Below are positions 9,363-23,247 of a DNA stretch of 64,000 bases, one piece after another. The translations under genes and the position numbers were made by a program. Position 1 is the stretch's first letter. Every line of letters starts with the position of its first letter. Source of the stretch: an uncultured delta proteobacterium (lineage in GTDB: Bacteria; Desulfobacterota; Desulfomonilia; UBA1062); NCBI GenBank assembly GCA_963798485.1, contig CAWCTR010000010.1, positions 61,411-125,410 of the forward strand, in the 5' to 3' direction. Under the pieces are notes generated by a model that was given only the letters and a program-made list of their open reading frames with translations, had not been told where the DNA came from and did no database searches.

Positions 9363-9668
9363 GGACGGTAGGATAAGGGAGAACGCCCGGGAGGTCAATA
9401 CGACTGTCGAACGAATATGAGAGAGCATGGAGGGGTGGTATGTTGAAATAACATACAAAGATGAGACCAGAAATGGAATTCAATTTCCGCTGAAGAAGAA
9501 AATGTTTATACCAAGGTGCCTCTTGCAAAGCATTTCAATTTTCTAATTTATTGAAATCATGCGCAACAGATATTTGCATAAGTTTTGCATGCAATAATAT
9601 CTTAATAATTAATTCTTTGTTATGATTTTCCTCCTTTATAACTCTACATAGTTTAGAGGAGGTTTCTT

Positions 9669-12600
9669 GTGATGAACAACACTTGCAAAAGGTTTTATAG
9701 TGGGTCTTTGTATGGCTTAATATCCGTATCTCTTCTATGCAGAGTACTTCTATTCCTGATTCTGCTCAACATTGCATCCATCCCTCTCATTAATAATGTC
9801 GCAGCCTGCCCGCCGGACCTCAAAGGGGATGTGGTTTTCGACAAGGACCGGCCCCTGGGGAGCGAGATCACGCTGAACAGCACGCTGTTCAATGTCTCGG
9901 GCAACCCCCTCTTCTATCAATGGTGCGGCCCTTTCTCCACGGTGATGGACCCCGGACCGATTGTCTTCCTACCCGAAGGCACCCATGCCATAACACTGTT
10001 CGCCTATGAGGGCATTCAGCGCTCCGGCCCGTTTACGCTCTATTTTGCAGTTGACCCTGAGTATTACATCCTGCCCATCGCCCTGAAAGGTAAAGTGTTT
10101 GTCGGCTGGCTGCCTGTAAAAGATGCACAGCAGTATCAGCTATACCGGGCGATTGAGACAACCCCCTCCAGTTTTGTAAAGATAGCTGATCTCCCATCAA
10201 GCTCTATCACCTACACTGACCCCAATCTCAGGGATGCAACATACTTGTATGTCCTGGGCGCACTGGTGAACGGTAAGTGGACTTTTTCCCACATAGCTAG
10301 CGCGCACCCGTTTACCAGCCTCCCCAAGCTGAACTATCCACCGGTCATATACTCGCAGCCCGTCATCCCGGCTACGGTGGACGTGCCGTATACCTACAAT
10401 GTCCTGGCGATCGACCCGCTGCCCGATATCCTCACCTACAGCCTCCTCAGCTCACCCCCGGGAATGACCATAAACAACCTGACCGGTCTCATCCAATGGA
10501 TGCCGCCCGCCATGGGCGATTACGAGGTTATTGTCAAGGTCAAGGACTTGAAGAACACCTACATGATCCAGACCTTCATTGTGGAAGCTGATGAATTGAA
10601 GGCCCCCAACAGACCTCCCGTCGCCCATGCAGGCGGGCCGTATACCGCGGATGTCGGCAAGGCAATGGTCTTCGACGGCTCTGCAACATACGACCCGGAC
10701 GGTGATACCCTGCAGTATGCATGGAACTTTGGTGACGGCAATAATGGAACCGGTGTATCTCTCAGCCATACCTATAACACCGTAGGTGCGCATCAGGTCA
10801 CACTCGTGGTCACGGACGGCAAAGGCGGGGTTTCAACCGATGCCACAACTGTAACAGTAACCTGTCAACAGCCCATGGTGGAGTTCTCAGCCGACCCGAA
10901 TTCCCTACGCCCAGGCGACCCGTGCACCCTCGTATGGTCTTCGGTAAACGCACAGAATGTAAGCATCGATGACGGCATCGGGCCTGTCAATGCATCGGGA
11001 ACCATGACAATACACCCCCAGAGCACAACGACCTACACCATCATGGCCGCAAGCCCTTGTGATAGCGCCACAAAGTCCGTTACGGTGATCGTGAACCAGC
11101 CGCCCGTTGTAACCATAGACGCCTCCCCGAAATCCATTATCCTAGGCCATTTTGCAACACTCACCTGGACCTCCGCCAACGCGGCTGCCATCACCATCGA
11201 CCAAGGCATTGGCTCGGTTATGCCGAATGGCTCCTTGTCGGTATCTCCGGCAACAGCCACCAACTATACCATTACCGCCCAGGGCCCCGGCGGGACCGCC
11301 ACTGCCAGCGTCGAAGTAAAGGTAAGCCCTCCACCGGCTCCCACAGTAAGTTTAACTGCAAACCCCACATCCATAATCCAAGGCGCATTTTCCACCCTCA
11401 CTTGGACCTCCGCCAATGCCGACACCCTGAGCATCAGTAGCGGCATCGGCCCGGTCAACCCGAACGGCTCCACTATTGTAACTCCCACTCAGACCACCAC
11501 CTACACCATCACTGCCCTTGGCCCTGGCGGGACTGCTACTTCGAGCGCTGCAGTCACGGTAACGCCTGCAAACGGCCCTCCCAGAATCGACAGTTTTACT
11601 GCCGCCTGCGGCGATAACCCTATCCTTAGAGGTTCATCCACTACACTAAGCTGGCGTTGCTCCAATGTGGATAATGTCACAACAGTCTACATCGAACCTG
11701 TAGGCTCGATTAATATCAGCGCATCTCCTCTTACAGTCTCCCCCCAGGTGACCACCGCCTATAACCTCACGGTTTCGAACCAGTGGGGTTTTGCGAGCGC
11801 GCAGGTCATCGTGAAGGTAACGGTTCCCCGTACGCCGCTGCCCGACGGGTCCTTCGGGAAACAGTATGAAGGGTTCATCCCCATTGATTCTACAGTGCAG
11901 CAATATAATACCAACCGGTTTTCTGTGATCACCGGCATCATGCAGGACAATACCAACGCCCCGCTGCCCGGGGTATCGGTCACGATCCTCGGACACCCCG
12001 AGTACGGCACGGCACAGACAGACAGCCAGGGGAGATTCGCACTGCCTGTTGAAGGCGGCAGCCTCATGACCGTGGTATACAGCAGGAATGGCTTTCTCAT
12101 AGTGCACCGGAATCTCAATGTACCGTGGAATGAAATAGCTGTTGCCGAGACCAGCGTGATGATCCCACGGGATACGGCGGCGACTACCATCACCCTTGAC
12201 GGGAACCCTCAAGCATCCTTTGTTCACCAGAGCGGTATCTCATCGGATAAGGACGGCACAAGGTCATGCACCCTGGTATTCAAGGGAGACGCCATTGCAA
12301 CAGCCGTAGATGCCGCAGGTAACACCACCAAGACCCTGCCAAGCACGATGTCGGTCAGGGTAACCGAGTTCACCGTGGGTCCTAATGGGAACCCAGCCAT
12401 GCCCGCTGAGCTTCCGCCCCAATCGGCATACACCTTCTGCGCCGAGTTCCAGGTAGACGGCGTCGAGAGGGTCAGGTTCAGCAAGCCCGTGGTTGCATGG
12501 GAGGATAACTTCCTCGGGTTACCTGTCGGCACCATAATCCCGGTAGGTTACTATGACCGGGATAAGGGTGTATGGGTACCCCATGCCAATGGTGTGGTTG

Positions 12601-14381
12601 TCAGACTACTCGATACGAATGGCGACGGCATTGTGGATGCCATCGATGCCAAAGGGAGTGGTCAGCCCACCGACCTCAATGGTAATGGTGATTTTTCAGA
12701 CGAAGTGGCGGGTCTCCAGCAGAACACATCCAGGTTCCAGGTCGGTAAAACATACTGGCGGGTGGAGATGTCTCACTTCAGCACAATGGATTTTAACTTA
12801 GCATATCTTGTCCCCAATGATACCCAAGAGCCTAATCCGAAGTATGATCCTCTGCTGCAGGGAGGAGAATACAATAAAGAGAATGTTCATCAGTGTTATC
12901 AGGTCCCTAATGCAGCATGTTCCGTAGAGGACAGGTCACAGAGCGTACATGAGGACATCCCAGTCCCCGGTACGGATATAAGCCTTCATTATGCAAGCAG
13001 CAGGGCACAGGGTAACAGGTACACCATCACCGTTCCTGCGAGCGGGGATACGGTATCGTCAAGTCTCTCATATATTAGTGTCCAGATGAGCATTGCCGGG
13101 AAGGTGTATTCCAATACACTAACCGCAGGGCCTAACCGCGTTGCAACATTTGTATGGGACGGGCTGGATGCATGGGGGAACCAGGCCTGTGGGAGAATTC
13201 TGGCAGATATTAAAATAGGTTTCGCTTACCCCGCACACTATGCTTCCATTGCAGAAGCGGTAAACAATCCTTCCCTCATGGTCTTTGGAAGAAACGGTGG
13301 TGGCTCAACCTGGACGCTTGGCTCCGCCACACGTTTGGAGACGATTGTATGGAAACAGTTCAGGATTGTTATTCAGAAGGAATCACTCGATAATTCCATT
13401 GCACATGGATGGTCGGCCAACATTAACCACCATGTGACGCCATATGATCCGAACATAATTTACAAAGGTGATGGGTCTATTGTGGATAATGAGAGTGTGA
13501 GGATGATCAGCACCTTTGCAAATTTCTCAAGCAGCCCCGGAAGCATTAGAGATGTTGCATGCGATTCTCAAGGGAATGTTTATGTAGCCCTTTTAAGCGG
13601 ATCTTGGGGGCTCTATAAATTTGACAAGAATGGTGTTCGCACTACGTTGGATACAAGACCTATAGCTGCAGTAACGGTTGATAGTCATGATAATATCTAC
13701 TATTCGGTACACCCGGGCCATTGCGTTGGGAACATTTCCACGGACTGCGGGGATATGATTTATAAAATAGGGTCTGATGGAATACCAGCCTATGTTGCAG
13801 GGACGCAATATGGCAACGGGAGTGAATCGGATAATATACCAGCAACACAGGCCTATCTGCCCATCACAAGCCTGGCTGTTGATAAAGATCAGAACATCTA
13901 TTTCGGTGCAGCATTCTATAACTACTCAGGTGAGGCAGGACCTCGTGTCCGTAAGATTGATACAAACGGGATTGTTTCAACAGTAGCGGGAAGCGGCTGG
14001 ACTTGGATGCATGGTGGAAATTACAATTATCCCGGGCCGGCCCGGGGGATTGATCTTGAAGGTGCTTATGCTGTCACACTTGACGCACACGGGAACATAT
14101 ATTTTTCAGGTGGGTCAGCAATTTTCAAGGTGGATACAAGCGGGTGGCTCACCTGTATTGCAGGAGGGAGGTATGCATCATCTTTTAATGACGGCATACC
14201 TGCAACAAGCGCAATTGTAGGAGCTGCCGGGTTAAAGATTGATGGATCCGGGAACATCTTTTTTTCAGAAACAAGTAGTTATAAGACTGGAATCATGAAA
14301 ATTGATTCCAGAGGCATTATATCAACTATAGCAGGCGGTGTTACACCAGGATTTTATCGGAGACGGTGGTCCTGCAATTAA
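9669..14381 (+). CDS. N-terminal part of a secreted teneurin-like protein (Ig/PKD repeats, carboxypeptidase-regulatory-like domain, FN-plug, NHL repeats); frameshifted at about 14352
   Basis: Hydrophobic N-terminal segment; PKD motif YAWNFGDG; EDIPVPGTDISLHYASSR and HGWS resemble the teneurin FN-plug; NHL repeats (D..GNIY); last residues go out of frame. Confidence 0.8.
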   Translation: MMNNTCKRFYSGSLYGLISVSLLCRVLLFLILLNIASIPLINNVAACPPDLKGDVVFDKDRPLGSEITLNSTLFNVSGNPLFYQWCGPFSTVMDPGPIVFLPEGTHAITLFAYEGIQRSGPFTLYFAVDPEYYILPIALKGKVFVGWLPVKDAQQYQLYRAIETTPSSFVKIADLPSSSITYTDPNLRDATYLYVLGALVNGKWTFSHIASAHPFTSLPKLNYPPVIYSQPVIPATVDVPYTYNVLAIDPLPDILTYSLLSSPPGMTINNLTGLIQWMPPAMGDYEVIVKVKDLKNTYMIQTFIVEADELKAPNRPPVAHAGGPYTADVGKAMVFDGSATYDPDGDTLQYAWNFGDGNNGTGVSLSHTYNTVGAHQVTLVVTDGKGGVSTDATTVTVTCQQPMVEFSADPNSLRPGDPCTLVWSSVNAQNVSIDDGIGPVNASGTMTIHPQSTTTYTIMAASPCDSATKSVTVIVNQPPVVTIDASPKSIILGHFATLTWTSANAAAITIDQGIGSVMPNGSLSVSPATATNYTITAQGPGGTATASVEVKVSPPPAPTVSLTANPTSIIQGAFSTLTWTSANADTLSISSGIGPVNPNGSTIVTPTQTTTYTITALGPGGTATSSAAVTVTPANGPPRIDSFTAACGDNPILRGSSTTLSWRCSNVDNVTTVYIEPVGSINISASPLTVSPQVTTAYNLTVSNQWGFASAQVIVKVTVPRTPLPDGSFGKQYEGFIPIDSTVQQYNTNRFSVITGIMQDNTNAPLPGVSVTILGHPEYGTAQTDSQGRFALPVEGGSLMTVVYSRNGFLIVHRNLNVPWNEIAVAETSVMIPRDTAATTITLDGNPQASFVHQSGISSDKDGTRSCTLVFKGDAIATAVDAAGNTTKTLPSTMSVRVTEFTVGPNGNPAMPAELPPQSAYTFCAEFQVDGVERVRFSKPVVAWEDNFLGLPVGTIIPVGYYDRDKGVWVPHANGVVVRLLDTNGDGIVDAIDAKGSGQPTDLNGNGDFSDEVAGLQQNTSRFQVGKTYWRVEMSHFSTMDFNLAYLVPNDTQEPNPKYDPLLQGGEYNKENVHQCYQVPNAACSVEDRSQSVHEDIPVPGTDISLHYASSRAQGNRYTITVPASGDTVSSSLSYISVQMSIAGKVYSNTLTAGPNRVATFVWDGLDAWGNQACGRILADIKIGFAYPAHYASIAEAVNNPSLMVFGRNGGGSTWTLGSATRLETIVWKQFRIVIQKESLDNSIAHGWSANINHHVTPYDPNIIYKGDGSIVDNESVRMISTFANFSSSPGSIRDVACDSQGNVYVALLSGSWGLYKFDKNGVRTTLDTRPIAAVTVDSHDNIYYSVHPGHCVGNISTDCGDMIYKIGSDGIPAYVAGTQYGNGSESDNIPATQAYLPITSLAVDKDQNIYFGAAFYNYSGEAGPRVRKIDTNGIVSTVAGSGWTWMHGGNYNYPGPARGIDLEGAYAVTLDAHGNIYFSGGSAIFKVDTSGWLTCIAGGRYASSFNDGIPATSAIVGAAGLKIDGSGNIFFSETSSYKTGIMKIDSRGIISTIAGGVTPGFYRRRWSCN
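10870..11825 (+). repeat. Four tandem about 80-aa Ig-like repeats inside the teneurin-like protein (approximate ends)
   Basis: Repeated P..I..G...TL.W.S.NA....I..GIG.V...G...V.P..TT.YTITA units in the translation. Confidence 0.75.
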
Positions 14382-17300
14382 CGCAATGTTCAATTACCCG
14401 GAGGGACTGGATATTGACCCCCTGGGTAATATTTATGTTGCTGATCAGGGCAATTACCGGGTACGGAGGATCACTACCAATACCAGTATCAGTTTGTTGT
14501 TATCCCAAATGACACAGGATGATATCCCTGGAGTCGAAGAGGGGTTGGGTTATATCTTCGACTATGCCGGTTATCATAAAAAGACTCTTGATCTGCAGAC
14601 CGGCTCCCAGCTCTATGCCTTCGGGTATGACAGCAACAGGAACCTCACCTCGGTCATTAACCGATTCGCCGAGACAACCACCATCGAGTATGCAGGCGGG
14701 GTTCCTTCAGCCATAGTCTCATACGACGGCATCAGGACAGCGCTGGCTGTCGATGAGGGACGCAATATCACGGATCTCACTTTCTCCGACGGCAATGGGT
14801 ATCATTTCGATTACAACAACGGTGGCTTCATGACCCGGGAACGAGATCCGAGGGGCAACGATTTTATTCATAACTTTGACGACACAGGCAAGGTCATGGA
14901 CGTGACCGACCCTGAAGGAGGCCACTGGGTCTACACGCGGCAGGTCAACCAGGCAACAGGGGAAACGGATTATGCCATAACCTCGGCCGAGAACAACACA
15001 ACAACCTATGCAGACACCACTGATTCCGCAGGGTTCCATTCCGTCATCACCGGCCCTGCAGGGGATCAGACGAACTACTTCCAGACCTCAAGCGGTCTGC
15101 ATGTGGAGAAGACGTTCTCGTGCGGCATGGGCCTCACGAGCGACTACGGCCTGGATGCGGCATACAAGTTCAAATTCATGAATAAGCTTGTGGAGAACAC
15201 GGGCAGTCTCTCCCGTACAACTACCTTTGCCAGGATCTATGCTGACTCAAATTCAGACGGCATACCCAACGACACCAATGCCGACGGCGTGCCCGACCTC
15301 ATCACCGAGACCTCGGTGCTGAACAGCAAGACTGCAATACTTGCAACCGACACCATCAACCACACCCATACCCTTACGAGCCCGGAGGGCAGGGGGACCA
15401 CGTTCACGTATGACCCTGGCACGCTGCTGACCACCCTGCTGCATGTGCCGGGGCTCATTGACACCTCCTACCAGTATGACAACAGAGGCAGGCCCGTTGG
15501 CGTTACGAGCGGCAGCCGCCCAACGAGTTTTGCGTACAATGACGCGAACGTGAATGACCGGACATCTGCAATCACAGACCCGAGGAATTTCACCACAATC
15601 TATCACTACAACAGCCGCGATCTCCTCTTCCAAGTGGACCGTCCGGATGGCAGCGGCATAAACTTTGACTATGACGCCGACGGCAACATGACTGTGCTGA
15701 GCAAGCCCGGGCCGACTTTAAGCGCCATGGTTGATCACGACTTCGGCTACAACCGCGTCAACCTGCCGGCATCGTACCAGACCCCGCTGAACAACACCTA
15801 TGCCTACACCTACAACAGGGACAGGCAGCTCTTGGGCATCAGCATGCCTTCGGGAAAACAGATCAGCAACACTTTTGCGTTCGGCCTGCTCACCCGCGTG
15901 CAGGCGCCCGAGGGTAACATAGACATCACGTATTCCTGCCCGTCCAAGATCAGCACCCTGACCAGAGGCGCACAGGGTATTTCTTATGGATACAACGGCT
16001 CGCTGCTGAGCTCCGAGACCATGAGCGGCTCCCTGAGCCAGAGCCTGAATTACACATACAACAACGACTTTGACATGAGCGCAGTGACCTATGCAGGCAG
16101 CGCCATGAACCTCACCTATGACAAGGACCGCCTGCTCAAACAGGCAGGCGCATATGCAATCACCCGTGATGCGGGCAACGGCCTGCCCACGGCAGTATCC
16201 GACGGAACTCTCACCATCGGCCGCACCTTCAATGGCTACGGGGAGCAGGCAAGCCTGTCATTCTCGGCCGGAAGCAGCGGGCATTCATGGAGCCTCACCT
16301 ACGATAACACAGGCAGGATAACAGGAAAGACCGAGACCGTGAACGGTACCACGAATACGTATGCCTATGCATACGACTCGCTGGGCAGGCTCCGCACCGT
16401 AACGTTGAACAACAGCGTGGTGGAGGATTACAGCTACGGCAACAATGGTGCCCGGATCTCGGAGATGAATGTGTACAAAGGCATCACAACATCAAGGACC
16501 CTGAGCTATTCCAATGACGACCAAGTGATCACCGCTGAAGGATCATCATACGCATACGATGCGGACGGGTTCCTGCATACAAAGACACAGGGTTCTTCCA
16601 CAACGACCTACACATATTCCAGCCGTGGTGAGCTGTTGAGGGTTAACCTGCCCGGTGGGACTGTGATAGAATACGACTACGACCCGCTGGGGCGGAGGAT
16701 AACGAAGAAGGTCAACGGCTCGATCACCGAGAAATATCTCTGGCAGAGTTCCACTCGTCTCTTTGCTGTGTACAATGGAGATAACACCTTAAGATACCGT
16801 TCCGAGTATGCAGACGGAAGGATGCCTGTAGCCATGACCGACGGCAGCAGCACTCGATACTACCTGAGCTATGACCAGGTGGGGAGCTTGAGGCTGGTGA
16901 CGGATACTGCGGGGCATGTGGTGAAGAGGGTGGATTATGACACCTTCGGGTATGTGGTGAATGACACGAATCCATCAATGACCATGCCGTTTGGATTTGC
17001 AGGCGGTCTGTATGACGGTGACACCGGAATCATCCGCTTCGGTGCCCGCGACTATGACCCTGACACCGGGAGATGGACGGCAAAAGACCCCATCCTCTTC
17101 AATGGCGGGGATATGGATCTGTATGGGTATTGTCTCAATGATCCGGTGAACCTGATTGATCCAGTTGGATTATGGAATCTTAGCCTATCAGTTTACTATG
17201 GATATGGTGGGTCTTTAACTCTCGGGCATGATAGTGGAAGGTTTTCCTTAAGGGTAGCCGGTGGCTTTGGTGTTGGAGGTGGAATTAGTTTTAAACCAAC

Positions 17301-17568
17301 TGGAAAATTTCCAAAATCTCCCGATGCACCATGTAGTGGACCTCTTGGATTTATTGGCGCAAGCGCTTGGGCAGGTGCCTCATTAGGTCCCATATCTGGT
17401 GGGTATAACTCCTTAGCAGGATTATCAATTTATCAACAAAGCGATGGGCGCCCGGATATGAGTTATATAGAACAGAGTGGACCATATGGAAGTTTAGTAG
17501 GTAAATCAGGCTGGGGGGTCAAATTGGGAGGTGGAATCAATATTGTAGATGTCGGAGTTGCATGGTGA
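14338..17568 (+). CDS. C-terminal part of the teneurin-like/RHS protein: last NHL blade, YD-repeat shell, RHS core and C-terminal putative toxin
   Basis: GDGGPA..FNYPEGLD, many YD repeats, PFGFAGGLYD..TG..RFGARDYDPDTGRWTAKDP, Y.Y..NDPVN.IDPVGL. Confidence 0.88.
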   Translation: MLHQDFIGDGGPAINAMFNYPEGLDIDPLGNIYVADQGNYRVRRITTNTSISLLLSQMTQDDIPGVEEGLGYIFDYAGYHKKTLDLQTGSQLYAFGYDSNRNLTSVINRFAETTTIEYAGGVPSAIVSYDGIRTALAVDEGRNITDLTFSDGNGYHFDYNNGGFMTRERDPRGNDFIHNFDDTGKVMDVTDPEGGHWVYTRQVNQATGETDYAITSAENNTTTYADTTDSAGFHSVITGPAGDQTNYFQTSSGLHVEKTFSCGMGLTSDYGLDAAYKFKFMNKLVENTGSLSRTTTFARIYADSNSDGIPNDTNADGVPDLITETSVLNSKTAILATDTINHTHTLTSPEGRGTTFTYDPGTLLTTLLHVPGLIDTSYQYDNRGRPVGVTSGSRPTSFAYNDANVNDRTSAITDPRNFTTIYHYNSRDLLFQVDRPDGSGINFDYDADGNMTVLSKPGPTLSAMVDHDFGYNRVNLPASYQTPLNNTYAYTYNRDRQLLGISMPSGKQISNTFAFGLLTRVQAPEGNIDITYSCPSKISTLTRGAQGISYGYNGSLLSSETMSGSLSQSLNYTYNNDFDMSAVTYAGSAMNLTYDKDRLLKQAGAYAITRDAGNGLPTAVSDGTLTIGRTFNGYGEQASLSFSAGSSGHSWSLTYDNTGRITGKTETVNGTTNTYAYAYDSLGRLRTVTLNNSVVEDYSYGNNGARISEMNVYKGITTSRTLSYSNDDQVITAEGSSYAYDADGFLHTKTQGSSTTTYTYSSRGELLRVNLPGGTVIEYDYDPLGRRITKKVNGSITEKYLWQSSTRLFAVYNGDNTLRYRSEYADGRMPVAMTDGSSTRYYLSYDQVGSLRLVTDTAGHVVKRVDYDTFGYVVNDTNPSMTMPFGFAGGLYDGDTGIIRFGARDYDPDTGRWTAKDPILFNGGDMDLYGYCLNDPVNLIDPVGLWNLSLSVYYGYGGSLTLGHDSGRFSLRVAGGFGVGGGISFKPTGKFPKSPDAPCSGPLGFIGASAWAGASLGPISGGYNSLAGLSIYQQSDGRPDMSYIEQSGPYGSLVGKSGWGVKLGGGINIVDVGVAW

Positions 17569-17631
17569 TAGTCTTTTTTGCAGGCCATAAACAAGAATTG
17601 TATGCTTTCAAGCACGATTATTTTGGAAATG

Positions 17632-17664
17632 AAGAGGTATCCTTTATCTATGAGGATACCTCTT
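17632..17664 (+). terminator. Perfect 12-bp hairpin after the RHS gene (possible terminator or processing site)
   Basis: AAGAGGTATCCT-N9-AGGATACCTCTT. Confidence 0.45.
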
Positions 17665-17673
17665 TGTGAAATA

Positions 17674-17958
17674 ATGAGAGCAGAAGAATACTCTTTCGTA
17701 GACCTTCTAATATTTTTAGGCATAGTTGCCAGCTTTATCATCTTCGGGCAATCCATTGGATGGAGATTGGTGGGTATATATCAGCTCTTCTTTACATTTA
17801 ATATTTTTCGAGAAAAAAAGATTGGCTTAGGGTATCTAGGTTTTATTCCGTCTACCTATATTAAAGGATATCTCTCAATATTGCTCGGCTTAATCAGCTT
17901 TTGCATAGCTGTAATGCTGATAATATTTCCGGAAAAGACAGTAATGAGATTGTTCTGA
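17674..17958 (+). CDS. Small membrane protein, candidate RHS immunity protein (start uncertain; ORF track starts at 17578)
   Basis: AT-rich, hydrophobic helices, directly downstream of the RHS C-terminus. Confidence 0.5.
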   Translation: MRAEEYSFVDLLIFLGIVASFIIFGQSIGWRLVGIYQLFFTFNIFREKKIGLGYLGFIPSTYIKGYLSILLGLISFCIAVMLIIFPEKTVMRLF

Positions 17959-17986
17959 TTTAAAGCAAGTTAAAGGGGGCTGTAAA

Positions 17987-18361
17987 ATGCCAACACCATT
18001 ATTTTATGAAAATGTGGCCGTTAAATTGAAACGATATATACCCTACTTTACAACTTGCTTTGTCATGGGCATCATTTTATGTCTTCTTTCCGCTGTGTTT
18101 ATTAAAACCGTTCCAAACGGATTTTTAATTTTTGGAATAGGTATATTACTCATCATTTGGGGCTGGGGTTTATTCCTAGTTTGTAAATGGTTTAACCCTT
18201 CTGCTAGTATCTTCAAAATAGATCAAGATAATCTACAGAGTGATAATAAAATGTTAACGGTATTAAAAGCAGGTGGAAGATGGAGTGCATCAATATTTCT
18301 AACAATATGGTTTTTATCAACCATTGGTATTCTTTTTTTCATTTTAAGTAGGTTGAGATAG
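17987..18361 (+). CDS. Small membrane protein, candidate (orphan) immunity protein
   Basis: AAGGGGG RBS-like motif, three hydrophobic segments, AT-rich, downstream of RHS. Confidence 0.6.
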   Translation: MPTPLFYENVAVKLKRYIPYFTTCFVMGIILCLLSAVFIKTVPNGFLIFGIGILLIIWGWGLFLVCKWFNPSASIFKIDQDNLQSDNKMLTVLKAGGRWSASIFLTIWFLSTIGILFFILSRLR

Positions 18362-18474
18362 AGAAAACCGATAGGGAAAACGAGGGAAGAAAACGGATTT
18401 AGAGACGAATAAAAATAAAGACGTCCGAAGCCTGTATGACGCTCGCCCGCTGTCACGTGTGCTGCAAGTTATTT

Positions 18475-18588
18475 ACATAACACAGCTCAGTTATCGATCC
18501 GGCACGGTCATGCCCTGTGCAGGTCAAGGAAGCCGGAGCAAGGAAGCGCACAGGCCACGCCCATGCCGGCCGCTAACCCGTGTTATGC
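18475..18588. other. Imperfect long hairpin with attC-like ends
   Basis: ACATAACAC...GTGTTATGC outer arms; inner CCGGCACGG/CCATGCCGG and CCTGTGC/GCACAGG pairs. Confidence 0.35.
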
Positions 18589-18751
18589 AAAAAACAGCAG
18601 CCCCCGCGCCAGCGGGCTTTTGCCCAGTCTCCCGCTCGGTACTTCGTAGCACGCCCGGGGTGCAAACCCCACGCCCTGCGACAATTGCCCGCCCTACCGC
18701 AGCACCTCCGCCCCCTGGGTGCCATGCCACGGCAGGTGCTCCATTGCCCGG

Positions 18752-18839
18752 GGAAACGGGGTCAGGTCTTGCTTTTTGCTTTTTTATAAACTGTGTATGT
18801 ACCAATAAGCAAAAAACAAGACCTGCCCCCTCGCTTTCC
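18752..18839. repeat. Miniature inverted-repeat element (REPIN/MITE-like)
   Basis: GGAAAC-GGGGTCAGGTCTTGCTTTTTGCTT ... AAGCAAAAAACAAGACCTGCCCCC-TCGCTTTCC. Confidence 0.75.
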
Positions 18840-18840
18840 G

Positions 18841-19193
18841 CAGACGGCATACCCAACGACACCAATGCCGACGGCGTGCCCGACCTCGTCACCGAGACTA
18901 CAGCAGTGAACGGCAAGAGCGCAACCCTTGCAACCGACACCATCAACCACACCCGCACCCTCACGAGTCCTGAAGGCAGGGCGACCACGTTCATGTATGA
19001 CCCGGGCACCCTGCTGACCACCCTGCTGCACGTGCCGGGGCTCACTGACACCACCTACCAGTATGACAACAGGGGCAGGCCCGTTGCCGTTACGAGCGGC
19101 AGCCGCACAACGAGCTTAGCGTACAATGACGCGAACGTGAATGACCGGACATCTGCAATCACAGACCCGAGGAATTTCACCACAATCTATCAC
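18841..19193 (+). pseudogene. Orphan 353-bp RHS/YD fragment, diverged copy of 15254-15606
   Basis: Colinear with 15254-15606 (DGIPNDTNADGVPDL...NFTTIYH) with several substitutions; no start or stop of its own. Confidence 0.9.
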
Positions 19194-19256
19194 GAAGGGA
19201 AAAGAAAGGAAAAGGGTGAAAGGAAAAGGAAAGAAAGGAAAAGGGAAAGGAAAAGG
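19194..19256 (+). repeat. Purine tract of tandem, variably truncated copies of GAAAGGAAAAGG
   Basis: GAAGG GAAAA GAAAGGAAAAGGGT GAAAGGAAAAG GAAA GAAAGGAAAAGG GAAAGGAAAAGG. Confidence 0.9.
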
Positions 19257-20084
19257 GAAAGGAAAAGGGGACGTTTCTATTTTTTCTTGGAAGATGATTT
19301 TGTGGTGTATCTTGGCGATGAAATGAACTTGCCAGAAGGACTGATTTCATGGATACATGGGATGATTGTTATGATGTGGAATGGAGGAAGTTATGCCAAG
19401 GAGTCACCGACCTATTCCGCCAGATGGTTGTTTGCACATTATGTGCCGAGGGAACAACAAGCAGCTCATTTTCAATTCTGATGAAGATTTTCAATATTAC
19501 TGTGAACAACTCTGTGAATTGAAAGAAGAGAATCAAATAGAAATCTATCATTATTGTTTGATGAGCAATCACGTTCATTTAATAGCGAGAATCCGTGCAG
19601 GCAGCACATTGCCGAAGTACATGAAGCAAGTAAATTTGAGTTATTTTTATTATTTCAAGAGGCAGCACGCATATAGCGGACATCTATGGCAGGGCAGGTA
19701 CAAGAGCTGCATAATAGAGAAGAACAATTATCTATTACAATGTGGCAAGTACATAGAGCTGAATCCAGTAAGGGCAGGGATTGTAGAATCACCAGAGCAG
19801 TATAAGTATTCATCCTTCGAGTATTACTCAAAGGGGACCCCAGATAAACTATTAATAGAGAACCCTTTGTATCGAGAGCTTGGATCAACGGAAAAGAGGA
19901 GAAGAGAAGTATATATAGATTTTGTTTTGCCGGAAAGTATCAAAATCCGGTTAGGGATGGAGAGATTTATTGGGACAGGAGGTTTTATCCAAATGAATGA
20001 GGCAGGGTTTCACCTTAAAAATACAAGACTCAGACGAGGACGCCCTCGGAAGGAGGAAAAATAGAAACGTCCCCTTTTTCTTTC
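19257..20084 (+). mobile_element. RAYT-type element bounded by about 31-bp inverted repeats
   Basis: Left GAAAGGAAAAGGGGACGTTTCTATTTTTTCT (19257-19287); right AGGAAAAATAGAAACGTCCCCTTTTTCTTTC (20054-20084). Confidence 0.8.
19393..20064 (+). CDS. REP-associated tyrosine transposase (RAYT; Y1 HUH, IS200-like superfamily)
   Basis: MPR start behind GGAGG; HIMCRGN, MSNHVHL (HUH), LWQGRYKS, YIELNPVRAG, YSS motifs. Confidence 0.9.
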   Translation: MPRSHRPIPPDGCLHIMCRGNNKQLIFNSDEDFQYYCEQLCELKEENQIEIYHYCLMSNHVHLIARIRAGSTLPKYMKQVNLSYFYYFKRQHAYSGHLWQGRYKSCIIEKNNYLLQCGKYIELNPVRAGIVESPEQYKYSSFEYYSKGTPDKLLIENPLYRELGSTEKRRREVYIDFVLPESIKIRLGMERFIGTGGFIQMNEAGFHLKNTRLRRGRPRKEEK

Positions 20085-20096
20085 CCTTTTTCTTTC

Positions 20097-20561
20097 CATG
20101 AAGCAAGTAAATTTGAGTTATTTTTATTATTTCAAGAGGCAGCACTCATATAGCGGACATCTATGGCAGGGCAGGTACAAGAGCTGCATAATAGAGAAGA
20201 ACAATTATCTATTACAATGTGGCAAGTACATAGAGCTGAATCCAGTAAGGGCAGGGATTGTAGAATCACCAGAGCAGTATAAGTATTCATCCTTCGAGTA
20301 TTACTCAAAGGGGACCCCGGATAAACTATTAATAGAGAACCCTTTGTATCGAGAGCTTGGATCAACGGAAAAGAGGAGAAGAGAAATATATATAGATTTT
20401 GTTTTGCCGGAAAATATCAAAATCCGGTTAGGGATGGAGAGATTTATTGGGACAGGAGGTTTTATCCAAATGAATGAGGCAGGGTTTCACCTTAAAAATA
20501 CAAGACTCAGACGAGGACGCCCTCGGAAGGAGGAAAAATAGAAACGTCCCCTTTTTCTTTC
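20097..20561 (+). pseudogene. Tandem duplicate of the 3' two-thirds of the RAYT gene plus right inverted repeat; lacks the HUH motif
   Basis: Copy of 19620-20084 with about 4 substitutions seen by eye. Confidence 0.9.
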
Positions 20562-20897
20562 GTATCATTACATTAGCTACAAAACGTTGTAAAGATCTAA
20601 ATGATATCATTAGATATAAAAGTAATTTTAAGTTAATAAACCTAAGATTTTTTGTGCCAACTCCTAAAACTAAGTTTGGATAATACGCACCATAGATTAT
20701 AACTCAAAATCATCACAATACTTATTGTGAATATTCCTGCGATAACTCATCAATCCTATCTTCAGGAGATCAATCGTTGATTTCAGGTTGAAATCTTCAG
20801 TAATCCAATAACATTCGCGGATCGTTCGCGCGGCACTTGTATAGCATGGCATAGCAAGATACTGAACAGATTCAAATCCTATGCGATCTACCATAAC

Positions 20898-20932
20898 AAA
20901 AAACAGCCGGCTGATTCCATTCAGCCGGCTGT
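20898..20932 (-). terminator. Rho-independent terminator of glgP
   Basis: ACAGCCGGCTGA-N6-TCAGCCGGCTGT stem followed by a T-run on the minus strand, just after the glgP stop. Confidence 0.8.
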
Positions 20933-20952
20933 ATCACTTGTAAAATAAACCC

Positions 20953-23100
20953 TCACCCCAGTATCCCGGTCTCGGTTGATGTCGCGCTGGCTGCGGGCAT
21001 GTAGAAACGCTCGGCATAGTCCTTGACCATGCGGTCTGCAATGAAGCGCCAGCCAAGGGTCTGCATGGCGTGTTTCATGCGTTTGACCCACTGGGAGGGG
21101 ATTCCGTGGATGTCCCTATGGTAGTAGAGCGGGATCACCTCTTTTTCGAGTGTCTCATAGAGATATGCAGCGTCCCTTGCGTTCTGCACGGCCAGGTCGT
21201 TGTGCATGCCCCCGTGGCCTACGGCAAAACCGTTGTTGCCGTCGTACGCCTCGTTCCACCAGCCGTCCAGCACCGAGAGGTTGAGGCCACCGTTCAGGAC
21301 GATCTTCTGCCCGCTGGTGCCGCATGCCTCAAGCGGTCTGCGCGGGGTGTTCAGCCACACATCCACCCCCTGTACGAGGTGGCGTGCCACGTTGTAGTCG
21401 TAGTTCTCAACGAACACGATGCTGCTCCTGAAGTTCTTTGTATAGCTGAGCTGGGCGATTTTCTGCAGGAGCAGCTTGCCCTCGTTATCCATGGGGTGGG
21501 CCTTACCTGCGAAGATGATCTGGATGGGGCGGCGGGAGTCATTGATCATCTTGGTAAGGCGGTCCATGTCCGAGAGAATCAGGTCCCCGCGCTTATAGGT
21601 GGCAAACCTGCGTGCGCAGCCTATGGTCAGCACATCCGGGTCCAGGATGTGCTCGACCTGTTTGGCCATATCCAGATCTCCTCTGCGCTCGGCCTGTATG
21701 CGCAGGCGGCGCCTCACAAATCGGATCAGTCTCATCTTCAGGCTCTGGTGCGTCTCCCACAGCTCCCCGTCTTCGATGTCTTCCATACCCTCCCAGATAT
21801 CCGGGTGCACCATGCGCGTGGCCCAGTCCTGGCCGAGGCGTGTCTGGAACAGCTGGTACATCTGGGGCGCCAGCCAAGACAGGACATGCACCCCATTGGT
21901 GATGTGGCCGATAGGCACCTCTGACTCAGACCTCCCAGGCCAGAGGCTGTTCCACATGAGGCGGCTCACCGAGCCGTGGATGGCCGAGACGCCGTTTGCA
22001 TGACGGCAGCTCTTCAGCGCCAGCACTGTCATGCAGAAGGGTTCTGTCTTGTTGCCAGGATCAACGCGGCCAAGGGCCATGAAATCATCGTGGGACAGCC
22101 CCAGCCTTTCCCGGAAAAGACCGAGATGCTCATCGATCAGTTCGGGCGAGAAGCGGTCATGGCCTGCAGCAACAGGGGTATGCGTGGTAAAGACCGTATA
22201 CAAAGATACGCGCCGGTGTGCGCGATTAAAGGGGATCTGGTCATACTCCATTATCCGGCGCACCTCTTCAAGGATGGCAAAGGAGCTGTGTCCTTCATTC
22301 AGGTGGAGTACACCGGGGAAGATGTTCAGCCCCTGTAGTATGCGTGCGCCCCCAATACCCAGCAGCAGCTCTTGCCGGATGCGGAGCTTAGTGTCGCCCC
22401 CGTACAACCGGCAGGTCAATTCGCGGTCCTCGGCTGAGTTTCCTTCCATGTTGGAATCGAGCAACAGCAGGCGGATGCGTCCCACCTGAACCTGCCAGAC
22501 ACGGGCCAGCAGAGGGGTGCTCCTGGTATCTACCCGTACAACCAACGGCTGTCCGCTTGAATCCATAACCTCTTGCAGCGGCAGCTTTTTTATGTCGATG
22601 TTGAGGTATTCTTCTTCCTGCCATCCCTCCTTGTTCAGGCGCTGACTGAAATAGCCCTGCTGGTAGAGGAGCCCGATACCGATCAGGGGAATTCCCAGGT
22701 CAGAGGCGCTTTTCAGGTGGTCGCCCGCCAGGATGCCCAGGCCCCCGGAATAGATCTGCAGGGATTCATGCAGGCCGAACTCGGCAGAGAAATAGACCAC
22801 CGGCCGGTTGTTCAGATTGCCGCAGTGAATGGCGCCCCAGGTCTTCTGCAGCTCAATATACTCATTGAGCCGCCTGAAGGCATAGTTTATACGACTGTGG
22901 AGTACCAGCTCCGAGGCCCGGTCCTCCACCTGTGAAGGGGTGATCTGATTCATGAAGGCAACCGGATTATGTTCCACCTGTCGCCACAGATGGGGGTCCA
23001 GGTCGGTGAAGATGCTGATGACCTCAGGATGCCATGTCCACCAGAGATTATCGGCCAGGGTGCGGAGACGTTTATGGAGATTGATGTTTGTGTCTGTCAT
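20953..23100 (-). CDS. glgP: Alpha-glucan (glycogen) phosphorylase, paralogue 1
   Basis: YFSAEFG, YSGGLGILAGDHLK, HLNEGH, ARRFATYKR, EACGTSGQK; start set at ATG 23100. Confidence 0.95.
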   Translation of the reverse strand: MTDTNINLHKRLRTLADNLWWTWHPEVISIFTDLDPHLWRQVEHNPVAFMNQITPSQVEDRASELVLHSRINYAFRRLNEYIELQKTWGAIHCGNLNNRPVVYFSAEFGLHESLQIYSGGLGILAGDHLKSASDLGIPLIGIGLLYQQGYFSQRLNKEGWQEEEYLNIDIKKLPLQEVMDSSGQPLVVRVDTRSTPLLARVWQVQVGRIRLLLLDSNMEGNSAEDRELTCRLYGGDTKLRIRQELLLGIGGARILQGLNIFPGVLHLNEGHSSFAILEEVRRIMEYDQIPFNRAHRRVSLYTVFTTHTPVAAGHDRFSPELIDEHLGLFRERLGLSHDDFMALGRVDPGNKTEPFCMTVLALKSCRHANGVSAIHGSVSRLMWNSLWPGRSESEVPIGHITNGVHVLSWLAPQMYQLFQTRLGQDWATRMVHPDIWEGMEDIEDGELWETHQSLKMRLIRFVRRRLRIQAERRGDLDMAKQVEHILDPDVLTIGCARRFATYKRGDLILSDMDRLTKMINDSRRPIQIIFAGKAHPMDNEGKLLLQKIAQLSYTKNFRSSIVFVENYDYNVARHLVQGVDVWLNTPRRPLEACGTSGQKIVLNGGLNLSVLDGWWNEAYDGNNGFAVGHGGMHNDLAVQNARDAAYLYETLEKEVIPLYYHRDIHGIPSQWVKRMKHAMQTLGWRFIADRMVKDYAERFYMPAASATSTETGILG

Positions 23101-23247
23101 AGTAAACCCCTCAAAAGTTAATGTGTTGAAAATCTGGTAAGACAGCTTAAACATACTTTAAGCATCATAGGTAGTATTTAGCATTAAGGGCATGGGACAG
23201 GAAACGGTAAAATATAATTTATTCAGTATTCATCACCGTGAAAGAGT

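Follow-up and report, generated by a model that had tools for sequence, protein, structure and literature searches.

The stretch of DNA analysed here, called the window, comprises 64,000 nucleotides (nt) from an uncultured delta proteobacterium and corresponds to C10:61411-125410 of this assembly, G000 (4.3 Mb, 32 contigs). Downstream of an RHS toxin gene it contains a RAYT-type Y1 HUH gene bounded by inverted repeats, and three breakpoints of duplicated DNA fall at the termini of such repeats. Throughout, contigs of G000 carry the letter C, other genomes are named by G and a number, loci of RAYT homologues by L and a number, and sequencing runs X1 to X4; coordinates given without a contig are those of the window.

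The RAYT gene (19381-20064, plus strand, alternative start at 19393) encodes 227 amino acids (aa) with the HUH residues H64/H66 and the tyrosine motif Y124; these three residues are invariant across five aligned relatives. An earlier note on this DNA, made from the letters alone, had taken the gene for a RAYT, and this assignment holds: The protein matches PF01797 (Y1_Tnp) with 56.6 bits at a cut-off of 23, and in a profile search the best solved relative is TnpArep of E. coli (PDB code 4er8, E 1.4e-4), with both motifs covered. A single-sequence search of solved structures with the RAYT protein gave no match, and on the NCBIfam equivalog NF047646 its 76.6 bits lie below the cut-off of 80. Its nearest relatives among the loci listed are L029 (51%) and L108 (48%). 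The gene is intact and apparently functional. It is single-copy: Besides the full gene, the genome contains one partial tandem copy as well as paralogs of at most 35% identity.

The element begins with a stuttered left end (19194-19287, plus strand), in which a purine stutter (19194-19266) precedes the core GGGGACGTTTCTATTTTT (19267-19284). The first copy of the right inverted end (20054-20097) contains the 12-nt unit CCTTTTTCTTTC twice. It is followed by a partial tandem copy of the 3' part of the RAYT gene (20097-20561, plus strand), which includes a second right end (20531-20561) with a single such unit. The inverted match between the left end and the first right end spans 44 nt (19244-19287 and 20054-20097, 93%), the one with the second right end 31 nt (19257-19287 and 20531-20561, 94%).

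That three breakpoints lie at inverted-repeat termini had been claimed in the earlier note; the claim was confirmed in the sequence, and the junctions are exact. Junctions A and B enclose an RHS fragment of 353 nt (18841-19193, plus strand), which lacks a toxin tip. Its source copy is a segment of the main RHS gene (15254-15606, plus strand; residues ~306-423 of the second of two open reading frames (ORFs)), from which it differs at 30 of 353 positions (91.5% identity), namely at 16 third, 6 first and 8 second codon positions; the frame is kept and there is no stop. At junction A, a hairpin mini-element ends with CGCTTTCC at 18839, then follows one G, and the RHS homology begins at 18841, 2 nt after the end of the mini-element, as had been noted. 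At junction B, the homology stops at 19193, just where the stutter of the RAYT element had been said to begin: A purine stutter of ~75 nt runs from 19194 into the left inverted end. Junction C concerns the RAYT gene itself. The segment 19620-20084 is repeated at 20097-20561 with 4 differences in 465 nt, and the duplicate begins after a CTTTC end, again in agreement with the earlier observation; the joint reads CCCCTTTTTCTTTC CCTTTTTCTTTC, then a single C which is common to both sides, then ATGAAG.

The mini-element (18748-18840, 93 nt) carries two inverted GGGGTCAGGTCTTG arms and folds as DNA with -22.9 kcal/mol (z -4.8). Copies of it lie on C8 and further contigs. It belongs to a second GGGG-headed repeat family, whose arm motif also bounds the genes of a longer RAYT-like clade in relatives; in this genome, the cognate long RAYT is absent or represented by a degraded candidate. 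A degraded RAYT-like gene on C7 (191270-191800) is preceded by a GGGGTCGGACC motif, contains a tandem duplication of 66 nt in its interior and is cut short by another transposase gene. An Rfam scan of 17500-21500 gave merely microRNA-like matches on the mini-element hairpin, which were below threshold and were dismissed as noise.

Read data were available from four runs of one study, as contigs only, with a depth of 2-6 and no cover at 20147-20895. No contig of these low-depth runs bridges junction A, B or C, from which neither presence nor absence follows. A contig of X1 carries the allele of the RHS fragment (1 mismatch over 18911-19193) and then continues into further RHS sequence in place of the RAYT stutter found in the window, so that a longer form of this allele exists in the sample. 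For G000, the contamination is 6.96%, and numerous contig pairs have ~99% identity over kilobases (C2/C3, C4/C25, C12/C19, C22/C29, C26/C27/C28, C19/C21); the bin probably merges close strains.

The repeat family and duplications at its termini

The 44-nt inverted ends belong to a family of dispersed repeats: The core GGGGACGTTTCTATTTTT with a purine stutter before it occurs at 26 sites in the genome. Ten of these cluster in C10:5-27 kb around a paralog RAYT (35% identity, at C10:9597), which has a repeat variant of its own, GGGGACAGATTTATTTTT, at its ends. This paralog is surrounded by ATPase, FRG and TPR genes, and no toxin genes were found among them. The same region (C10:5000-27000, L025 and L026) also contains PAS genes as well as tandem repeats of 56 and 117 nt at 14766-14978 and 15454-15970 of the contig. 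A palindromic hairpin with a GTAG head was not found in the ends of the RAYT element. The head is GGGGAC, and single ends fold no better than shuffled sequence (z 0.0 to 1.3), so that they are not classical REPs. A RAYT of the classical type, with a GTAG head and palindromic repeats on either side, lies on C21 (255400-256100); a terminal stutter, CTCAACCCAACCTACAA twice and then CTACAA, is present in its right flank as well.

A second case of a duplication that ends in the repeat is located on C4, where 141699-142097 (399 nt) stands in tandem with 142100-142498 at 96% identity, each copy ending in the repeat. A genome-wide check for duplication breakpoints at the repeats, as proposed in the earlier note, gave more than expected by chance: At 4 of the 26 sites, which represent two events, the boundary of a duplication of at least 150 nt lies 4-45 nt outside the core, as compared with a chance expectation of ~0.4 estimated from the boundary density.

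The homologue set was derived from an alignment of five relatives. It consists of 158 loci, 79 from genomes and 79 from metagenomes, which are those examined among the at least 609 and at least 604 stretches listed in two scans; kin among them are not independent. Direct-repeat pairs of at least 100 nt were determined by self-comparison, in seven toxin- or effector-adjacent loci first and then in all 158. Ten of the 71 pairs, belonging to 8 loci, start 20-120 nt past the RAYT stop codon, versus 0.46 expected.

Clean joints can be followed at single loci. In L048, a Pseudomonas isolate, a 269-nt partial RAYT copy follows directly after CCCCTTTTGGTC. At a second terminus of the same locus, CCCCTTTTGGT with the break before a C, a cdiA-like orphan begins, which matches the main cdiA-like gene over 359 nt at 92.5% and then continues with a different tip; it is followed by a 128-aa ORF and a further solo repeat. 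In L055, a single-contig chromosome, the joint leads into a 203-nt copy of the 3' end of an upstream gene (97.5%), and the RAYT lies between the copies together with an ABC transporter and two small ORFs. In L058, the 3' end of manC is present as a copy of 300 nt (91.7%), with RHS, an immunity ORF and the RAYT between the repeats. Partial RAYT tandem copies of 103 nt and 351 nt were found in L066, a Skermanella isolate, and in L101, respectively. Relatives possess uninterrupted sites, namely G070 for L058, and G089, G102, G093 and G090 for L055. In all joints, the break lies 7-12 nt beyond CCCC, an offset which equals the element/flank boundary in the last copy, and the partner site, here called P, is arbitrary, upstream and in direct orientation. 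The P sites have no common motif, and the microhomology at P is 0-2 nt.

Stutters were counted on the basis of 138 loci with both flanks, 91 of them with detectable inverted ends. Tandem stutter is present at 33 of 182 outer ends (28 of the 91 loci) versus 6 of 182 control windows, as determined with a detector for periods of 7-30 which misses stutters that have become part of the inverted repeat, as is the case in the window. In composition, the stutter units vary from locus to locus. A 101-nt repeat that ends at the left end in L059 resembles an unrelated terminator-like repeat and was left out of the counts. In some genomes, clusters of 3-4 diverged RAYT paralogs occur within 6 kb (L047, L101, L107, L068); in L107, a truncated paralog begins exactly at the stuttered terminus of another RAYT. 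The signature, a fixed break at the repeat terminus with arbitrary upstream partners in direct orientation and with sizes that range continuously from stutters to kilobases, recurs in isolates and metagenomes of several phyla. The earlier proposal that the RAYT joins its own termini to new DNA stands insofar as termini are recurrently joined to unrelated upstream DNA; that the enzyme itself performs cleavage and joining is what we infer.

Toxin genes and the surrounding island

A tblastn search with the RHS of the window identified four of the 158 loci as carrying RHS (L058, L079, L108, L160), two in each subset of 79. RHS enrichment near homologous RAYTs, for which the earlier note had suggested a test, is thereby observed: All four matches lie in the 308 kb of upstream windows, and none was found in the other 1,275 kb (1.28 Mb) of flank. 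In each case, RHS, a small ORF (96-131 aa), a repeat with stutter and the RAYT follow each other in this order on one strand, and housekeeping genes lie beyond the RHS-RAYT unit. An upstream flank of at least 1500 nt is present in 94 of the 158 loci. A neighbour of the polymorphic-toxin or type VI secretion system (T6SS) effector type is present at seven of the 98 loci whose upstream flank exceeds 1200 nt. Pfam matches among 185 upstream ORFs of 97 loci include CdiA-type proteins in L048 (DUF637) and L150 (PT-VENN) as well as the T6SS protein Tle1 in L033. The other upstream neighbours are mostly housekeeping genes, and a DUF1415-methyltransferase neighbourhood is conserved in ~10 loci. In a tree of 156 RAYTs, the toxin-adjacent ones are scattered over the protein tree (seven rows, the window's own row being excluded).

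The main RHS gene of the window, a teneurin-like toxin gene (9669-17568, plus strand), is according to tblastn the sole RHS gene of the genome. It contains the Pfam domains PKD, TTR, NHL, YD-shell and RHS_repeat and the RHS core domain of NCBIfam; the scores of 130 bits for TEN_YD-shell, 88 bits for RHS_repeat and 71 bits for TIGR03696 (residues 867-945) place it in the RHS family. The gene consists of two overlapping ORFs of 1570 and 1076 aa (9669-14381 and 14338-17568), and the split at 14338-14381 divides the NHL domain between both; the ortholog in G002 is a single ORF of 2593 aa. Either a true frameshift or an assembly error at low depth accounts for the split. Past the toxin tip lie two small ORFs of 126 and 124 aa (17578-18361, plus strand), which have no family match and are presumed, from their position, to be immunity genes. 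Element E (18361-18503) starts with a purine stutter at the stop codon and also has a degenerate repeat core. It recurs at C8:16560-16688 (84%) and in the RHS array of G002, where the copy sits after the first immunity gene. The adjacent 244 nt (18504-18747) are GC-rich and contain several short inverted repeats; searches of this genome, of 30 relatives and of Rfam gave no match to them. On the other side of the RAYT element, an AT-rich flank of ~380 nt (20562-20942) reaches a conserved phosphorylase gene (20953-23154, minus strand). Within this flank, 20653-20920 is a repeat which also occurs in G002, G003, G004, G007 and G011 and at C17:188186; a 65-aa ORF on the minus strand of this region has no Pfam match.

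The locus forms the distal edge of an RHS polymorphic-toxin island. Contigs of X2 and X4 cover the end of the phosphorylase gene and diverge before 20945 into sequence foreign to the window, which indicates that the island boundary differs between strains of the same study. In G007 and G002, the left flank of the window (9405-9417) is continuous with C8:16695 onward, and in G007 a small membrane-protein gene (C8:16044-16526) adjoins the phosphorylase gene. Compared with these two genomes, both neighbour pairs are swapped in G000, and a copy of E (~130 nt, 84%) stands at each new joint; we read this arrangement as a putative inversion with E copies at the breakpoints. The idea that the whole island is a transposon was rejected, as no second repeat lies upstream of RHS in the window, L058, L079, L108 or L160. 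The RHS array of G002 (L010) is bracketed by direct copies of another repeat (at ~2560 and ~14560 in window orientation, 60-nt context), which may be an insertion sequence (IS) or a duplication flanking the island.

Comparison with known systems

REPtrons (TnpA-REP, groups 2 and 3) resemble the element in their Y1 HUH fold, in having one full copy per genome and in their inverted, dispersed flanking repeats; the second paralog with its own repeat variant is a further likeness. In contrast to REPtrons, the head is GGGG(A/T)C instead of GTAG, the unit is non-palindromic and occurs in ~26 copies, the outer flank is stuttered, the NF047646 score is below the cut-off, the gene is located on accessory islands, and duplications are anchored on the terminus. 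Group 1 RAYTs are described in the available text of Bertels et al. (2017, PMC5581495) as widespread in Proteobacteria and beyond, as showing signs of horizontal transfer and as having scarce flanking 16-mers, with 12 occurrences. By this description, their spread, low repeat number and transfer signs fit the present clade, whereas that text mentions neither stutters nor captured DNA. In the literature we found no paper that links RAYTs with RHS or contact-dependent inhibition (CDI) loci, none that describes stuttered or duplication-anchoring RAYT ends, and none on duplications anchored at a RAYT terminus.

By topology, the nearest known analogue is the one-ended capture of ISCR/IS91 elements: One fixed end takes variable adjacent DNA, a single copy suffices, and the resulting order is [P...terminus][P...]. 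For ISCR1-linked integrons, the available part of PMC3575428 reports duplications of the 3' conserved segment (3'-CS), i.e. partial copies of the neighbouring conserved segment. The likeness is confined to this topology, and the element does not belong to ISCR/IS91: its protein is a PF01797 Y1_Tnp, whereas ISCR/IS91 form another HUH family, and its ends are inverted repeats, whereas theirs are the dissimilar oriIS and terIS; moreover, the same events occur here also at 10-500 nt, as stutters and partial gene copies. The IS200/IS605 elements share the enzyme superfamily, whose chemistry consists, according to the available part of PMC8266576, of single-strand cleavage yielding a 5'-phosphotyrosine and a free 3'-OH. 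Unlike the RAYT element, which is single-copy and has inverted repeats without a hairpin fold, they occur in multiple copies, carry directly oriented subterminal hairpins and cause no duplication on insertion; the RAYT element is no member of this group. Genes of the IS200/IS605 type do occur in the genome, on C1 and C30, with 125-130 bits for PF01797. In RHS/CDI orphan arrays (Poole et al. 2011, PMC3150448, as far as available), a downstream fragment likewise shares a conserved stretch with the main gene, whereas the fragment of the window is an internal shell piece that has neither tip nor immunity gene. IS elements within orphan arrays are on record in the same text; a tie of orphan boundaries to RAYT-type repeat termini was not found in the part available.

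Proposed mechanism and rival explanations

Our preferred reading, to which we assign a probability of roughly one half, is that the three breakpoints reflect a habit of the RAYT/repeat family, by which a terminus is joined to an arbitrary upstream point P. On the outward-reading strand, the outer terminus, which lies 7-12 nt past CCCC, would be joined to P in direct orientation, and the product would be the order [P...terminus][P...]. Such events would span several scales: stutters of 8-25 nt, partial copies of the RAYT 3' part of 103-477 nt, and kilobase units flanked by direct repeats. The RAYT would nick single-stranded DNA at the terminus and remain bound to the 5' end. A free 3'-OH, e.g. 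of a nascent strand at the replication fork, would then resolve the link; in the fork version, the leading-strand end would be joined to the cut lagging-strand template and the intervening stretch duplicated. According to the available part of PMC8266576, an arbitrary oligonucleotide that is added in vitro resolves, by its 3'-OH, the 5'-phosphotyrosine link of a RAYT. The stretch from P to the terminus would thereby be copied twice. Host recombination between the copies could loop the unit out as a circle, which might enter a relative by homology and leave diverged direct repeats; this step would fit the repeats of 92-97% identity and the empty sites. The same event inside a toxin gene would displace a 3' module, which would become an orphan. 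For the window, a first event anchored on the mini-element would have made an RHS orphan, which the left end of the RAYT element would later have trimmed to a stub of 353 nt; in a second event, the RAYT's own 3' part would have been copied. Tentatively, and with the odds against it, this can be widened to the proposal that GGGG-headed RAYTs are one-ended duplication and capture engines, which nick at the repeat terminus, have the break closed by any 3'-OH in the vicinity and in this way copy 10 nt to several kb of upstream DNA, for export to relatives by host recombination. Behind RHS/CDI genes, they would be a regular source of orphan toxin-immunity modules, and RAYTs would then have a role at the level of the host, as generators of diversity at toxin loci.

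Several observations weigh against this interpretation. Clean joints are scarce, with 9 of them at 7 loci of 6 genomes, and among the eight loci that make up the excess of direct repeats, three are unclean: In L069 a whole gene is copied in tandem, with no visible GGGG terminus at the joint, L107 gives a paralog match of 77%, and L087 has a repeat with a period of 63 nt. Three of the four other RHS-adjacent loci (L079, L108, L160) have no duplicate at the terminus, and ~93% of the homologous RAYT loci are not at toxin genes. The putative cleavage site and strand are deduced from sequence comparison, and the inverted RAYT ends have no hairpin fold of their own (z ~0), unlike the REPs used in RAYT biochemistry. 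In the window, the 5' joint of the RHS fragment lies on the mini-element, which belongs to another repeat family, and not on the RAYT element at 19381. The fragment is not an RHS orphan by composition: It is an internal shell piece, and with neither a toxin tip nor an immunity ORF following, it is not a usable orphan. The RHS copies diverge by 8.5% and the RAYT copies by 0.9%, which shows a difference between the events, be it in age or in source. If the window is considered alone, junctions A and B would be accounted for by two insertions that hit an old orphan independently. The homologous RHS array of G002 has two classical orphans and no RAYT in the locus, and only one of its three module boundaries has the repeat; with this count, the idea of the repeat as an attC-like cassette boundary at every orphan module was rejected. 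For the earlier reading that the RAYT builds or remodels an orphan array, the fixed order of RHS, ORF, repeat and RAYT at four loci speaks in favour; the stub, its 5' joint and the orphans of G002 do not support it. On the whole, the observation made in the earlier note is confirmed and its interpretation partly supported.

Passive decay would dispense with duplication by the RAYT altogether: The mini-element and the RAYT element, as two mobile repeats, would have entered an old RHS orphan independently of each other, deletions would have trimmed it, RAYTs would collect behind toxin genes because the DNA there tolerates insertions, and the matching ends would be those of ordinary insertion. 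The available text of PMC3150448 records the disruption of orphan modules by IS and transposon genes, and the missing tip and immunity gene of the fragment, its longer allele in the X1 contig, the G002 orphans without a RAYT and the housekeeping neighbours of most homologues are all in line with decay. We nevertheless regard this explanation as rather unlikely, as it does not account for the copies of housekeeping 3' ends at the terminus in L055 and L058 with intact empty sites in relatives, for the partial RAYT tandems (window, L048, L066, L101) and the C4 case, or for the 20-fold excess of direct repeats that start at the right end; moreover, it needs an insertion exact to 0-1 nt at the homology boundary of the L048 orphan. 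An assembly artefact, i.e. mis-joins in a metagenome-assembled genome with redundant contigs, is very improbable. The contamination and the many near-identical contig pairs would speak for it, as would the low depth, at which no contig bridges a junction and the single contig reaching 19193 continues into RHS. However, at none of the joints do the two sides have a k-mer in common on which a mis-join could rest, the same architecture is present in the isolates L048 (Pseudomonas sp.) and L066 and in the single-contig chromosome L055, and contigs of X1-X3 have variants at two of the four positions that distinguish the RAYT copies, which these contigs cannot phase.

It could also be that the repeat DNA acts alone: Replication would be stalled at the inverted ends or their stutters, or these would pair with each other, the polymerase would change template, and duplications would end at the repeat with no nick by a RAYT. 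The ends in the window are long purine/pyrimidine tracts which can pair with each other over 44 nt, and solo repeats far from any RAYT are stuttered as well. REP sequences at duplication join points are reportedly an old observation, made by Shyamala in 1990. The available text of PMC7661048 cites that work. The stutter units of relatives, however, are not purine tracts (e.g. CCGTTTCAAC, CTTTACCTT, CTGTTGTTCTGC), and given this mixed composition, polypurine (H-DNA) slippage was rejected as the cause of stuttering. Single ends that fold no better than shuffled sequence likewise argue against an effect of the DNA alone, and the fixed offset of 7-12 nt from CCCC, coinciding with the element/flank boundary, is what is expected of a site-specific cut. 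We consider this explanation to be quite unlikely.

The benefit of RAYTs to their hosts has been an open question since their description, and the origin of RHS/CDI orphans is usually ascribed to unspecified recombination. The sequence signature connects these two questions, and a direct repeat starting at a RAYT terminus can serve as a simple screen for RAYT-mobilised cargo in genomes.

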